Under the pieces are notes generated by a model. That model worked only from the letters and a program-made list of their open reading frames with translations, had not been told where the DNA came from and ran no database searches. The position numbers and the translations under genes are program-made. A stretch of DNA of 64,000 nucleotides from sequence record NC_054910.1, one strand, 5' to 3'. How positions within the stretch are numbered: the first letter of the stretch is position 1; each line of letters starts with the position of its first letter. The DNA comes from Escherichia phage EcNP1. Positions 42,952-45,902 of this stretch are shown piece by piece.

Positions 42952-43407
42952 TTAAAAGAGGTTGTTCATTATTCGGTAAAGTGAAGGACCCATCACATAT
43001 TGCCACTGAGTGCGAGGAATAAGAGCAAAAGCATCCATCTCTGGAATCATAACACCATCTTTATTTTCAAAATAAGACTCGCAATGGCAATTTCTAAACA
43101 TCTCATGCTCTACTGGAATCGTATAATAAAATAACTGAAGGTCTTTATTACTAGAATATTTAAATACACCTAGGTCTTCTAGAAGGTCTGGATTATAATT
43201 GCTAAAACCAGTCTCTTCTAAACATTCTCTTCGTGCTGCATCTAGTGCGTTTAAATCAGAATTTTCTACACGGCCTTTTGGAATATCCCAGCGATGTGCC
43301 ATCATTCCAGGCTTACGAGAACCAGTAACCCGTCCCATGAATAAATCTTTATCTTCTGTCATAAAGATAATACCAGCTGATAGTGTTTTCATTTTAATTT
43401 CCTGCAT
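42952..43407 (-). CDS. nudE: Nudix hydrolase
   Basis: 151 aa; Nudix box GRVENSDLNALDAARRECLEETGF; RBS-supported alternative start at 43392. Confidence 0.9.
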   Translation of the reverse strand: MQEIKMKTLSAGIIFMTEDKDLFMGRVTGSRKPGMMAHRWDIPKGRVENSDLNALDAARRECLEETGFSNYNPDLLEDLGVFKYSSNKDLQLFYYTIPVEHEMFRNCHCESYFENKDGVMIPEMDAFALIPRTQWQYVMGPSLYRIMNNLF

Positions 43408-43877
43408 TCAGTGATAAAGTTATTTAAATTTTGAGTATATTTCTTTTCATCAAAAATCTTTTGTTGTCTGCGTAGCCGCCATGGCATTTCTATGAACGTG
43501 TACCATATCCCAGATAATATTGCTGCTGTAAAAATATTAACAAGTATGGTTAAAAGAATCCAATCTCCTATTCTGTCCATTGGATTTTTTATAAAAAAGT
43601 AAAATATGAATGATGTCACAGGAAGACTAATAATATACCACAGAATCATAATTTTATCTGTGAACCAATCAGCGTTCGTTAACTTAGCGCGACCATTATA
43701 AATACACACGAATTTATCATCTGTTGCAGTAGATGGCTTAACTGGTTGATATCCCATTCTAAACTCCCTAATTAACAAATTTTTCATATCTTCGGAACAG
43801 CCATTCCAGTCAACTCTATCAACTGGAATGCCATCATCCCCATCATCTAAATCATACCAGCGAGTTTTTAAAATCAT
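43389..43877 (-). CDS. Small membrane protein (paralog family, C-terminal CRKLK tail)
   Basis: ORF track 162 aa. Confidence 0.65.
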   Translation of the reverse strand: MILKTRWYDLDDGDDGIPVDRVDWNGCSEDMKNLLIREFRMGYQPVKPSTATDDKFVCIYNGRAKLTNADWFTDKIMILWYIISLPVTSFIFYFFIKNPMDRIGDWILLTILVNIFTAAILSGIWYTFIEMPWRLRRQQKIFDEKKYTQNLNNFITECRKLK

Positions 43878-44236
43878 TTAATTTTCCTACAATCACTCAC
43901 AAACTCTTCCATTGATTCTTTTTCAATATAAGACATGTAGTTATTATATTCCTTTAATTGTATTTTGTAATCCTTTTTTCTTTGCCAATTTATTTTAAAA
44001 TTATCATAATGAAAATATAGCATGGTGCCAAAGAATGAAAATAATGAAATCGCTATAGTATAACGAAGTTCACTCCAAACCTCTGTTATAATTACTGTGC
44101 CGTCGATGTTTAAAATAAAACAGTCAATTAGCAATCCAATAAGACTACCCGCAAGAGCTGCAAATACTGACACAGCAAGAATTAATAGTGCCTCGGGAAA
44201 CGAATATTTGACTTTATTTAGTTTTGGCTTTTGCAT
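43874..44236 (-). CDS. Small membrane protein (paralog family, C-terminal CRKIK tail)
   Basis: ORF track 120 aa. Confidence 0.65.
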   Translation of the reverse strand: MQKPKLNKVKYSFPEALLILAVSVFAALAGSLIGLLIDCFILNIDGTVIITEVWSELRYTIAISLFSFFGTMLYFHYDNFKINWQRKKDYKIQLKEYNNYMSYIEKESMEEFVSDCRKIK

Positions 44237-44631
44237 CGTGATTCCTTAACAAATTTCATAATTTCATTAAATTCATACATATCTAGTTTAAGCTGGTGTT
44301 CCTTTTTAATCTTTTTACACTGAGCTTTCCATTCACGTACACGTTTACGATAATGCCTTCCTTGATACCAATATCCTACCCAATTTACAGGTACTAATAA
44401 AAATGGAACTACTAATGGAAGAATTAATACTGACAGAAATATTACACCAGATTCAATATCAGTCATAACGTCTATAACCATTCCAATAATCAATAGAATT
44501 ACAAATGATATAGCTGTCACAGGACCTATTAATACATCGGTAGAAATTATCTGGTGCTTTGGTTCATACTTCAAAGGTTTACTTGGAAGGTATAGTGATG
44601 GCTTTGACATATTCTCTACATTCCTTAACAA
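44218..44631 (-). CDS. Small membrane protein (paralog family)
   Basis: ORF track 137 aa. Confidence 0.65.
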   Translation of the reverse strand: MLRNVENMSKPSLYLPSKPLKYEPKHQIISTDVLIGPVTAISFVILLIIGMVIDVMTDIESGVIFLSVLILPLVVPFLLVPVNWVGYWYQGRHYRKRVREWKAQCKKIKKEHQLKLDMYEFNEIMKFVKESRCKSQN

Positions 44632-45193
44632 ATTTTTCTAGTAATAAATCGCTTTCAAAATTGGGATTTTCCACGAATTTATCAAAAAGATCATCAATAA
44701 TAGTCAAGATATTCCTTTTATTAAGAATACGCTTATTTTCATATTTTGTTTCAGAGTCAACTATAAGAGTAAAGAAATATTTCTTTCCCTGAAATTTTAC
44801 CGTAGTATCAATATAGAACAAATTTGACTTTTGTAAATTACGTTTAAACCATGCGTCACTTAAACTATAAACGCCAAGATAATCATAATCGTCATTTAAA
44901 TAACAAACTGTCCATTCAGGAGAAATGAAATCAGTAAATTCAACATCAAAATCACACGTCAATGAATGAATTGATTCAATACTGTTAATGAGTATTCCAG
45001 GACGTATTAAAGACTTTTTACCTCTAGAAAATCTTCCAGAAAGACTTTCATCAGTTTCATATGAAGACCCCCAATAGTAATTACGTCCTTCTGCCATACG
45101 TTTAAGAGCATTTAGTAATTGGTCTGGAACATCAACCTGTCTTTGGAACTCTTCAAACATTGAATTGAAATCACTTTGCATTTTCATTTTCAT
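44579..45193 (-). CDS. Hypothetical protein
   Basis: ORF track 204 aa. Confidence 0.68.
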   Translation of the reverse strand: MKMKMQSDFNSMFEEFQRQVDVPDQLLNALKRMAEGRNYYWGSSYETDESLSGRFSRGKKSLIRPGILINSIESIHSLTCDFDVEFTDFISPEWTVCYLNDDYDYLGVYSLSDAWFKRNLQKSNLFYIDTTVKFQGKKYFFTLIVDSETKYENKRILNKRNILTIIDDLFDKFVENPNFESDLLLEKFVKECREYVKAITIPSK

Positions 45194-45212
45194 TCCTATT
45201 TACTCCAAGTAT

Positions 45213-45231
45213 AAGGGGCCGAAGCCCCTTA
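45213..45231 (-). other. C(UUCG)G hairpin
   Basis: Plus aaggggccgaagcccctta. Confidence 0.65.
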
Positions 45232-45234
45232 TCA

Positions 45235-45865: not shown

Positions 45866-45902
45866 GAAGAATTATATCATGCTATTTAAGAGATGTAAAC
45901 TA
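45866..45902 (-). promoter_or_regulatory. T4-type early promoter
   Basis: Plus gaattatatcat...tgtaaac (45894-45900). Confidence 0.6.

Follow-up and report, generated by a model that had tools for sequence, protein, structure and literature searches.

Putative membrane hairpin proteins e.2, e.3 and e.4 and a shared C-terminal tail at overlapping gene junctions in a T4-type phage

The 64-kb window considered here (the whole stretch of DNA that was analysed) is assigned by its sequence to a Tequatrovirus; vB_EcoM_Nami matches it at 100% identity across the e.2-e.5 region. The genes and signals of interest are:

42952-43392, minus strand: nudE (Nudix hydrolase; Pfam NUDIX, E=1.7e-13), terminal gene of an overlapping chain
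43389-43877, minus strand: e.2, 162 aa, from the ORF list (phrog_2203, E=2.5e-78, residues 1-160)
43874-44236, minus strand: e.3, 120 aa, from the ORF list (phrog_2330, E=9.8e-59, residues 1-118 of 120)
44218-44610, minus strand: e.4, 130 aa, with its ATG at 44610 (phrog_2604, E=1.7e-70, residues 1-130)
44579-45193, minus strand: e.5, 204 aa, without a hydrophobic segment (maximum hydropathy 0.87)
45211-45232, minus strand: GC-rich hairpin with a UUCG loop, between e.6 and e.5
45871-45899, minus strand: strong sigma-70-type promoter upstream of e.6 (TTTACA-17-TATAAT, 11 of 12 matches, with a TG extension)

A preliminary description had singled out three consecutive minus-strand ORFs ending in NFITECRKLK, EEFVSDCRKIK, and MKFVKESRCKSQN, all of which are present in the ORF list. 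By synteny and profile matches these are identified as the catalogued T4-type accessory genes e.2, e.3, and e.4: the window genes are collinear with T4 e.2-e.5, gene order from e.5 to nudE matching that of the T4 orthologues; the e.2-e.4 proteins are 82-88% identical to their T4 counterparts (82.5% for e.3); and PHROG matches of the genes in the region have E-values of 1e-59 to 1e-110. Each of the three matches its own family profile over its full length, including, for e.2, the N-terminal W..LDDGDEGI..VDW..C domain. Relatives of e.2 carry PF26896 (Phage_T4_Y06M), and all close relatives of e.4 have a precomputed PF26873 match. As T4-type genes all three are already known, and there is no indication of a novel type of system. 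The ORF coordinates given earlier hold except at one end: position 44631 is a TTG start from a mechanical ORF list, while the annotated T4 start of e.4 corresponds to the ATG at 44610 (MSKPSLY..., 130 aa), which the other phages examined also retain. The window e.2 is unbroken at 162 aa; that of the T4 reference is frameshifted into ORFs of 102, 30, and 51 aa.

By coordinates, successive genes overlap by 32 nt (e.5/e.4), 19 nt (e.4/e.3), 4 nt (e.3/e.2), and 4 nt (e.2/nudE), the last two being ATGA stop/start overlaps; the DNA for the last e.4 residues also encodes the e.3 N-terminus, MQKPKL. The genes e.5-e.4-e.3-e.2-nudE thus form one overlapping five-gene chain, probably read from an early promoter before e.6. 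The transcript reading into e.5-nudE is likely to start at the promoter listed above; in T4 record L13089, annotated minus-35/minus-10 signals precede the T4 homologue (msp3), and there is also a stem-loop at the position matching the e.6/e.5 hairpin. A scan directly upstream of e.5 gave no promoter consensus match of at least 10/12.

Kyte-Doolittle hydropathy places the hydrophobic segments as follows:

43590-43655 and 43491-43565, minus strand: e.2 TM1 and TM2 (about aa 75-96 and 105-129)
44108-44191 and 44006-44065, minus strand: e.3 TM1 and TM2 (aa 16-43, strong, and aa 58-77, weaker)
44470-44532 and 44377-44448, minus strand: e.4 TM1 and TM2 (about aa 27-47 and 55-78)
e.2 layout: predicted cytoplasmic N-terminal domain (aa 1-74), TM1, TM2, and a basic helix ending NNFITECRKLK

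This agrees with the two hydrophobic helices per protein of the preliminary description; the weaker second segment of e.3 is helical in its AlphaFold model (pLDDT 86), which has helices at 13-45 and 58-119. The model of e.2 (pLDDT 71) has helices at 70-96 and 103-161, and in both models TM2 is continuous with the C-terminal helix. All three proteins share a predicted architecture of two TM segments, basic N- and C-termini, and an acidic or neutral loop: the three inter-helix loops hold 0, 0, and 2 Lys + Arg, the N-terminal segments 4-10, and the C-terminal segments 9-15. Each would be a small inner-membrane hairpin, predicted to be N-in/C-in. As modelled, TM2 of e.2 and of e.3 runs into a basic, putatively cytoplasmic helix ending in F-[IV]-x-x-C-[RK]; hydropathy and alignment to e.3 suggest the same TM2-to-tail helix for e.4.

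The tails themselves are located as follows:

43392-43424, minus strand: e.2 tail, NNFITECRKLK, containing a Shine-Dalgarno-like AGGAAA for nudE
43877-43909, minus strand: e.3 tail, EEFVSDCRKIK, containing a Shine-Dalgarno-like AGGAAA for e.2
44221-44259, minus strand: e.4 tail, MKFVKESRCKSQN, with AAGGAA in K-E codons just upstream of the e.3 ATG
44609-44638, minus strand: e.5 tail, EKFVKECREY, the same motif in a predicted soluble protein

At the DNA level, the pattern TTTRTNNNNGANTGYMG occurs three times in the 64-kb window, all within the cluster (e.5, e.3, e.2), against an expectation of 0.04; none of 100 shuffles reached three. In six-frame translation, the only real genes with F[IV]xxC[RK] are e.5, e.3, and e.2, each having it at the C-terminus, and by both scans the other gene junctions in the window lack the motif. 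The canonical Cys position has been lost from the e.4 tail; the basic C-terminal region of e.4 also holds an internal tail-like EWKAQCKKIK.

The copy ending the predicted soluble upstream protein e.5 had been missed by the preliminary description. It reads F-[IV]-x-E-C-R in all three genera compared, and it matches the e.2 and e.3 profiles (P 2e-4 to 1e-3), the similarity being confined to the tail. Because the non-membrane e.5 has the same motif, the tail is not family-specific among these genera and, on the sequences compared, is not to be read as a marker of a membrane-protein family.

Pairwise comparisons are too weak to decide how the three hairpin proteins are related, and family profiles were used in their place: the best BLASTP match covers 14 residues of the tail, at E=0.004 (the others are above 0.04), and a three-sequence MAFFT alignment has only 21% identity. 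Such figures would suit a chance or compositional resemblance among Lys-rich, AT-rich C-termini of unrelated small membrane proteins, the possibility that the preliminary description had set against its own proposal. Several results argue against this: profile-profile P values of 3e-8 and 6e-6; scores that none of 150 and none of 100 segment-wise column shuffles reached; the excess of the DNA pattern over expectation; and the retention of the tail across three genera. The compositional reading is already refuted by the shuffle controls, and hardly any credence is left to it. The conserved tail first noted on these ORFs is accordingly real by those controls; it was the implied tie to a membrane-protein family that gave way, with e.5.

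By hhalign, e.3 and e.4 match with a probability of 94-95% (P 3e-8 to 1.5e-7; at best 2.7e-8, over 106 columns) and a score of 46.4, against 17.6 ± 4.4 for segment-wise column shuffles. With the tails removed a weak similarity remains (P 1.4e-4, reached by two of 100 shuffles), and an M-x-K-P-x-L N-terminus and junction DNA are common to both. That e.3 and e.4 are diverged tandem duplicates is well supported by these comparisons. The match of e.2 to e.3 (85-95%, P 6e-6 to 3e-8) covers no more than 34-37 columns, beginning where TM2 ends and running into the tail, and that to e.4 is marginal (P 3e-3) and lies in the tail only. With tails removed, e.2 matches neither e.3 (P 0.05) nor e.4 (P 0.008); these profiles are shallow (Neff about 2-3), so that failure to detect homology between the e.2 and e.4 TM regions is weak negative evidence. 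A 74-residue N-terminal domain, absent from e.3 and e.4, is kept in all e.2 relatives found. PHROGs and Pfam place e.2, e.3, and e.4 in separate families, and no homologue search with one family retrieved another of the three. The tandem duplication proposed for all three ORFs is thus upheld for e.3 and e.4 and not for e.2, which would be a separate protein sharing with e.3 only the post-TM2 helix and the tail; e.5 would share the tail only.

One alternative keeps e.2 in the family through serial tandem duplication: a single two-TM ancestor doubled twice, with a duplication unit running from the interior of the upstream tail to the interior of its own, so that all copies and the 3′ end of e.5 would carry the tail; e.2 would later have gained its N-terminal domain, and its TM region have diverged beyond recognition. 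The three genes are adjacent and on the same strand, their products share the predicted topology and the TM2-helix-tail architecture, and the profile matches for e.3 vs. e.4 (95%) and for the C-terminal regions of e.2 and e.3 (85-95%) would fit such a history. So would the 16-nt identity plus ATGnAAAAGCC shared by the e.5/e.4 and e.4/e.3 junctions, and a viable e.4::e.2 chimera, described below, that joins equivalent TM1 positions. It is harder to reconcile with the unlikeness of tail-less e.2 to either neighbor, with the three families returned by PHROGs remote-homology clustering, with the N-terminal domain present in all e.2 relatives found, or with Dhakavirus, where e.2 adjoins nudE and not e.3, small unrelated ORFs run after e.3, and an unrelated 229-aa gene lies directly upstream of e.2. 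Serial duplication is therefore held to be a possible but rather doubtful history, and a duplication limited to e.3 and e.4, with e.2 as a separate protein, is preferred.

Every tail directly precedes the start codon of the next gene. Its two middle codons spell purine runs: AAGGAA (K-E), AAAGGA (K-G), or GAGGAA (E-E); in Tequatrovirus e.3 and e.2, it is the R-K codons (AGGAAA) that carry the Shine-Dalgarno-like run instead, those of e.2 providing the run for nudE. In the e.5 tail, 11 nt separate AAGGAA from the e.4 ATG, more than a good Shine-Dalgarno sequence would allow; the argument for the middle codons therefore excludes the e.5 copy, and the e.4 Shine-Dalgarno sequence is likely, from its position, to lie within the e.5 R-E codons (AGAGAA). 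As far as these alignments go, part of the tail conservation is attributable to the Shine-Dalgarno sequence within the tail and to the next gene's start, which overlaps it.

Taken to its limit, this would make the tails alike by convergence, purely through encoding the next gene's ribosome-binding site and overlapping start, with no common ancestry or protein role. The invariable position just before a start codon would follow from this, as would the recurrence of AAGGAA, AAAGGA, GAGGAA, or AGGAAA in the x-x or R-K codons despite differing residues (K-E, K-G, E-E). A Shine-Dalgarno constraint accounts for two codons at most, however, and F, I/V, C, and R are (nearly) invariant across three genera and metagenomic relatives while their codons vary synonymously (Arg AGA, AGG, CGT, CGC, CGA; Cys TGT, TGC; Phe TTT, TTC); because of this synonymous change, these residues are taken to be conserved as protein. 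In Dhakavirus e.5 the Shine-Dalgarno sequence has shifted downstream, and F-I-x-E-C-R-E-Y is still kept; nor does the motif occur at the other junctions in the window. Convergence alone is accordingly judged improbable. The preferred reading is that the tail is constrained twice, as protein (F, I/V, C, R) and as the Shine-Dalgarno sequence of the next gene. It would be a clean example of motif conservation that mixes protein and ribosome-binding-site constraints, and a caution that C-terminal conservation in overlapping phage genes should not be taken as purely protein-level. The overlaps, with Shine-Dalgarno sequences inside the upstream ORF, further suggest translational coupling along the five-gene chain.

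An RNA-level explanation of the junctions was considered and rejected, since no Rfam family matched, no hairpin proved stable or conserved, and the junction RNAs fold no better than shuffled sequence (z = +1.0, +1.7, -0.8, +1.0). A tentative lead is a resemblance of the junction to the SELEX consensus of the RegA translational repressor (AAAAUUGUUAUGUAA vs. AAAUUUGUUAAGGAA).

The junctions also carry direct repeats:

44620-44635, minus strand: 16-nt perfect direct repeat, copy 2, in the e.5 tail
44241-44256, minus strand: 16-nt perfect direct repeat AAATTTGTTAAGGAAT, copy 1, in the e.4 tail (repeat family D7)
43843-43903, minus strand: imperfect direct repeat of ~61 nt, upstream copy, at the e.3/e.2 junction
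43359-43418, minus strand: the same imperfect repeat, downstream copy, at the e.2/nudE junction

The two 16-nt copies flank e.4, with a score reached by none of 500 shuffles; the imperfect copies flank e.2, with a local alignment score of 31 that one shuffle in 500 reached. Copy number does vary among T-even relatives, a check called for by the preliminary description. T2 is without e.2, and its deletion joins exactly the two e.2-flanking repeats in a hybrid junction; by tblastn counts, some 50 of the roughly 500 Tequatrovirus records would likewise have e.3 and lack e.2. The UFV phages carry an e.4::e.2 chimera, joined at a 10-nt microhomology and at equivalent positions where TM1 begins (PVT/SF), a joint that could reflect real homology between e.2 and e.4. 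Gene loss and fusion at junction repeats are thereby documented in Tequatrovirus, and the repeated junctions may well double as recombination substrates through which copy number changes. Comparison of three Tequatrovirus genomes shows the e.5 and e.4 tails to be identical over the perfect 16-mer, and they may have been homogenised there. When viral contigs were searched for exact copies of the 16-mer TTTATTAAGGAATGTA, 120 matches were sampled, of which 10 lay at C-termini, all of them in e.3 homologues; most of the sampled matches were due to chance, and they gave no sign of linker spread to unrelated genes.

Repeats of this kind invite comparison with the PeSLs, intergenic units that pair a sigma-70-type early promoter with a terminator stem-loop and whose short boundary repeats, in a non-essential region, allow recombination to remove or exchange whole genes (PMC2839356; PMC4122927). 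Repeats at gene boundaries, the loss of e.2 in T2, and the perfect 16-mer flanking e.4 are points of likeness. Unlike those of PeSLs, the repeats here are coding, comprising a C-terminal tail and the next gene's Shine-Dalgarno sequence and start; a PeSL-type cassette was rejected, since the junction repeats lie within the CDS, coincide with no terminator-like hairpin or promoter match, and give unstructured RNA. Translationally coupled phage and bacterial operons offer a second comparison, with their ATGA overlaps and Shine-Dalgarno sequences inside the upstream ORF; here a purine-rich one sits in each upstream tail. In contrast to ordinary coupled overlaps, the segment bearing the Shine-Dalgarno sequence is here also a conserved peptide motif, in four consecutive proteins. 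Databases file e.2-e.4 as unrelated families, which are here linked by the tail and by the e.3/e.4 similarity; the one motif connects PHROGs 2203, 2330, and 2604, Pfam PF26896 and PF26873, and e.5. Neither the tail nor the e.3/e.4 relationship was found recorded in the literature and databases searched.

As to function, literature searches on e.2, e.3, and e.4 found no functional study. In T4, knockdown of e.2-e.5 by CRISPRi-ART received the score “Not Fit” (PMC11879866, supplement file 15), i.e., the genes are dispensable in the laboratory, knockdown being without fitness effect. Pfam and NCBIfam gave no informative match for e.2-e.4, and PADLOC-DB no defence or anti-defence match at E<=1 for these or for e.5. 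A search with e.3 alone returned only relatives of at least 66% identity; alignment queries and an exhaustive HMMER search using e.2 extended the set to Mosigvirus, Dhakavirus, and Gaprivervirus and to a few relatives from metagenomes, and to nothing outside the T4-type phages.

Imm and Sp (superinfection exclusion) and rI/rIII (lysis inhibition) are small T4 inner-membrane accessory proteins. Like e.2-e.4 as predicted here, they are small, early, non-essential, and have one or two TM helices, and by this analogy theirs is the most likely functional class for e.2-e.4; Pfam, PHROGs, NCBIfam, and PADLOC show no similarity between the two sets. A membrane-anchored accessory or host-takeover function seems most likely for e.2-e.4, with the common cytoplasmic tail perhaps a shared docking or assembly helix; if it is an assembly motif, it would offer a handle on five T4 genes.

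Taken together, the account that we favor, with moderate confidence, has e.2-e.4 as T4-type membrane hairpins in an accessory role, e.3 and e.4 as duplicates, e.2 as a separate protein, the tail as doubly constrained, and the junctions as recombining. As such it is an ordinary finding of small practical value. A bolder proposal, which we consider unlikely, is that tail, Shine-Dalgarno sequence, and start make up a “coupling linker” that can be reused in frame, the coding equivalent of the PeSLs: at once a docking helix (possibly with one shared-site Cys each from e.5, e.4, e.3, and e.2), the next gene's ribosome-binding site, and a recombination target, with e.5, the three hairpins, and NudE in one membrane-bound complex. 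Were it correct, whole genes could be inserted, deleted, or fused without breaking frame or coupling.

Some existing annotations of the region are not supported. The “sulfurtransferase” label on e.3 and e.4 in some records has no Pfam or NCBIfam sulfurtransferase or rhodanese match at E<=1 and looks like a propagated misannotation; this and similar names are best flagged as unsupported. Nor did Pfam support e.6 as PspA-like. When the models of e.2 and e.3 were compared with viral structures by Foldseek, most matches fell in the family of the query and no informative relatives emerged; a match between the e.3 model and an HY01 membrane protein of 126 aa, possibly e.4, was non-significant (E=1). 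The e.2 model also matched the 124-aa A0A220NRA7 (E=3e-4, 22% identity), which might be an e.3 variant.

The 1,243-bp region holding the three small ORFs is 100% identical to that of Escherichia phage vB_EcoM_Nami and 87-99% identical to most of the other phage records that match it, about 500 in number and nearly all T4-like (Tequatrovirus), judging by name. Genes run in the same order as in T4: denV - e (lysozyme) - nudE - three small ORFs - e.5 - e.6. This identifies the ORFs as T4 e.2, e.3, and e.4. These genes are already catalogued: e.2, e.3, and e.4 fall into separate PHROGs families (2203, 2330, and 2604; E-values 1e-59 to 1e-78), and relatives carry precomputed Pfam tags for e.4 (PF26873) and e.2 (PF26896, “Phage_T4_Y06M”); none of the three drew a hit in a local copy of Pfam, NCBIfam, or PADLOC. 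Public product names for the genes of window positions 43389-45193 (among them sulfurtransferase, phosphoserine phosphatase, DNA primase, host specificity protein, and major capsid protein) are mutually contradictory. “Sulfurtransferase,” “phosphoserine phosphatase,” and “major capsid protein,” used in some records, are unsupported by any model; e.3, e.4, and e.5 gave no match to a sulfurtransferase or phosphatase model, and e.6 (“host specificity protein” in records) had no Pfam family above threshold. The record of phage T2 (AP018813) gives e.4 as a short ORF of 82 aa called “major capsid protein,” clearly a wrong label.

The C-terminal tails first quoted for e.2, e.3, and e.4 match the ORF sequences exactly, while the end assigned to e.4, 44631 on the minus strand, corresponds to a TTG start; the true start is the ATG at 44610. 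The two hydrophobic segments per protein in the preliminary description are also present by hydropathy: e.4 and e.2 have two transmembrane (TM) segments, and e.3 has one strong and a weaker second one. No hydrophobic segment was found in e.5. AlphaFold models of e.3 (pLDDT 86; helices 13-45 and 58-119) and e.2 (pLDDT 71; helices 70-96 and 103-161) are hairpins with the second helix continuous up to the C-terminus. Since the inter-helix loops of the three proteins have few Lys/Arg residues (0, 0, and 2) and the termini are basic, an N-in/C-in topology is predicted for all three.

Whether the three are tandem duplicates, as had been proposed, has a divided answer. Pairwise BLASTP similarity is weak, the sole match reaching E = 0.004 being a 14-residue stretch of the e.2 and e.3 tails. 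Family profiles built from Tequatro-, Mosig-, Dhaka-, and Gaprivervirus and metagenomic relatives were therefore compared by hhalign. The e.3 and e.4 profiles match at 95% (P 2.7e-8, 106 columns; in a local run 94%, P 1.5e-7, spanning TM2 to the tail). The e.2/e.3 match (85-95%, P 6e-6 to 3e-8) is limited to a stretch of 34-37 columns that starts at the end of TM2 and runs through the tail; e.2 and e.4 match in the tail only (P 3e-3), and e.5 matches e.3 and e.2 over 11-15 tail columns (P 2e-4 to 1e-3). The similarity is more than compositional: when alignment columns were permuted separately within N-terminal, TM, and C-terminal segments, none of 150 shuffles in either of two runs, and none of 100 in a third, equalled the observed scores. 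With tails deleted, e.3/e.4 similarity falls to P 1.4e-4 (2 of 100 shuffles as high), and no e.2 similarity is left. Thus e.3 and e.4 probably form a pair of tandem paralogues, but e.2 is related via a common C-terminal module only. A 20-nt direct repeat, 80% identical (44123-44142 and 44470-44489), lies at matching positions at the TM1 end of e.3 (LIGLLID) and e.4 (IIGMVID); its 347-nt spacing is about one gene length, and the repeat is a slight additional sign, in the DNA itself, that e.3 and e.4 are homologous.

The tail itself, F-[IV]-x-x-C-[RK] in e.2 and e.3, is not specific to the membrane proteins, being found also in the non-hydrophobic e.5. Its DNA pattern occurs 3 times in the 64 kb (0.04 expected), always inside the cluster. 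Translated in all six frames, the sequence yields F[IV]xxC[RK] within real genes only in e.5, e.3, and e.2, at the C-terminus of each. In e.4 the tail has lost the canonical Cys, and the nucleotides for its final residues also encode the N-terminus of e.3; the protein has an internal tail-like EWKAQCKKIK as well.

Junctions were aligned from six genomes, plus four e.2 relatives. In every one the motif lies directly 5′ of the next gene's ATG, and its Phe, Ile/Val, Cys, and Arg are constant despite codon changes (TTT/TTC; ATT/ATC/GTT/GTG; TGT/TGC; AGA/AGG/CGT/CGC/CGA). Because these residues are kept while their codons vary synonymously, they are under protein-level selection. The two middle residues differ non-conservatively (K-E, K-G, E-E) and their codons are always AAGGAA, AAAGGA, or GAGGAA; this constancy of purine codons while the residues vary is a Shine-Dalgarno (SD) constraint. 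The exceptions are Tequatrovirus e.3 and e.2, whose middle codons (S-D, T-E) are not SD-like; there the tail is longer by two residues, and the R-K codons supply the SD, AGGAAA. The R-E codons of e.5 likely contain the SD for e.4. In Dhakavirus e.5 the SD has shifted downstream, yet F-I-A-E-C-R-E-Y is retained. The tail linking the families, its presence in e.5, and the dual protein/SD constraint appear undocumented in the sources searched.

Along e.5, e.4, e.3, e.2, and nudE, successive genes overlap by 32, 19, 4, and 4 nt, and the five would form one translationally coupled unit. No structure was found in the junction RNAs, nor any match to an Rfam family. Two features likely delimit the transcription unit:

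45211-45232, minus strand, GGGGC-UUCG-GCCCC hairpin between e.6 and e.5
45871-45899, minus strand, near-consensus sigma-70 promoter with TG extension, strong early-type, upstream of e.6

For nudE, the ORF list and the T4 annotation use an upstream ATG (MQEIKMKT..., 151 aa; window 43392-43407) that lies within the e.2 tail without an SD. The 146-aa form is more plausible, because its ATG at 43392 has an SD (AGGAAA) and overlaps the e.2 stop.

The order e.5-e.4-e.3 is syntenic across Tequatro-, Mosig-, and Dhakavirus. In Dhakavirus Bp7, several small unrelated ORFs follow e.3, and e.2, with a 229-aa unrelated gene immediately upstream, is separated from e.3 and adjoins nudE; e.2 is therefore older than the Tequatrovirus-Dhakavirus split, and not obviously a recent tandem copy of e.3.

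Within the window a perfect 16-mer (AAATTTGTTAAGGAAT) brackets e.4, and e.2 lies between copies of an imperfect repeat, about 61 nt long. The 16-mer copies are identical in the three Tequatrovirus genomes compared and diverge in Mosigvirus and Dhakavirus, which suggests homogenisation through recombination. T2 (AP018813; stretch L003, 2450-2560) lacks e.2, and its e.3/nudE junction, GAGTGATTG|CAGGAAATTAAAATGA, is a hybrid of both flanking repeats that retains the tail, SD, and ATGA overlap. Counts by tblastn suggest that e.3 is present and e.2 absent in about 50 of about 500 Tequatrovirus records. In UFV05/06/09/10/11, five near-identical records and the only ones with this chimera, e.4(1-32) is fused in frame to e.2(88-162) (vB_EcoM-UFV10; stretch L010, 1414-1734) at a 10-nt microhomology, TCCTGTGACA, at the TM1 start, in a deletion that took out e.3. 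While e.2 is intact (162 aa) in the window and most relatives, in T4 (NC_000866; stretch L002, 1973-2461) it is frameshifted into ORFs of 102, 30, and 51 aa, only the first annotated. The loss of e.2 between repeats is comparable to that described for PeSLs, intergenic units of promoter plus terminator (PMC2839356).

A literature search for e.2, e.3, and e.4 found no functional paper, and fold searches with the e.2 and e.3 models were uninformative. In the CRISPRi-ART supplement (PMC11879866), each of T4 e.2-e.4 is entered as a “conserved hypothetical, predicted membrane protein,” and the knockdowns are scored as leaving fitness unaffected. A best guess would be a putative accessory membrane-associated role in early infection, with the shared tail as a putative common cytoplasmic docking or assembly helix. 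Nothing in the cluster is of an unfamiliar kind: it combines small accessory membrane proteins of phages, hyperplastic-region tandem duplicates, overlapping genes of the coupled type, and gene loss mediated by repeats.

Another tandem family whose C-terminal tail is conserved, the RB69 ORF139c/137c/136c type, is absent from the window and lies to the nudE side of e.3 in Mosigvirus Shf125875 (stretch L004, 3357-4151) and Dhakavirus dhaeg (stretch L005, 3691-4936), as tandem arrays of 3-5 small soluble ORFs. All terminate in W-[VF]-SSS-x-x-C, followed immediately by TAAGGAA and the next ATG.
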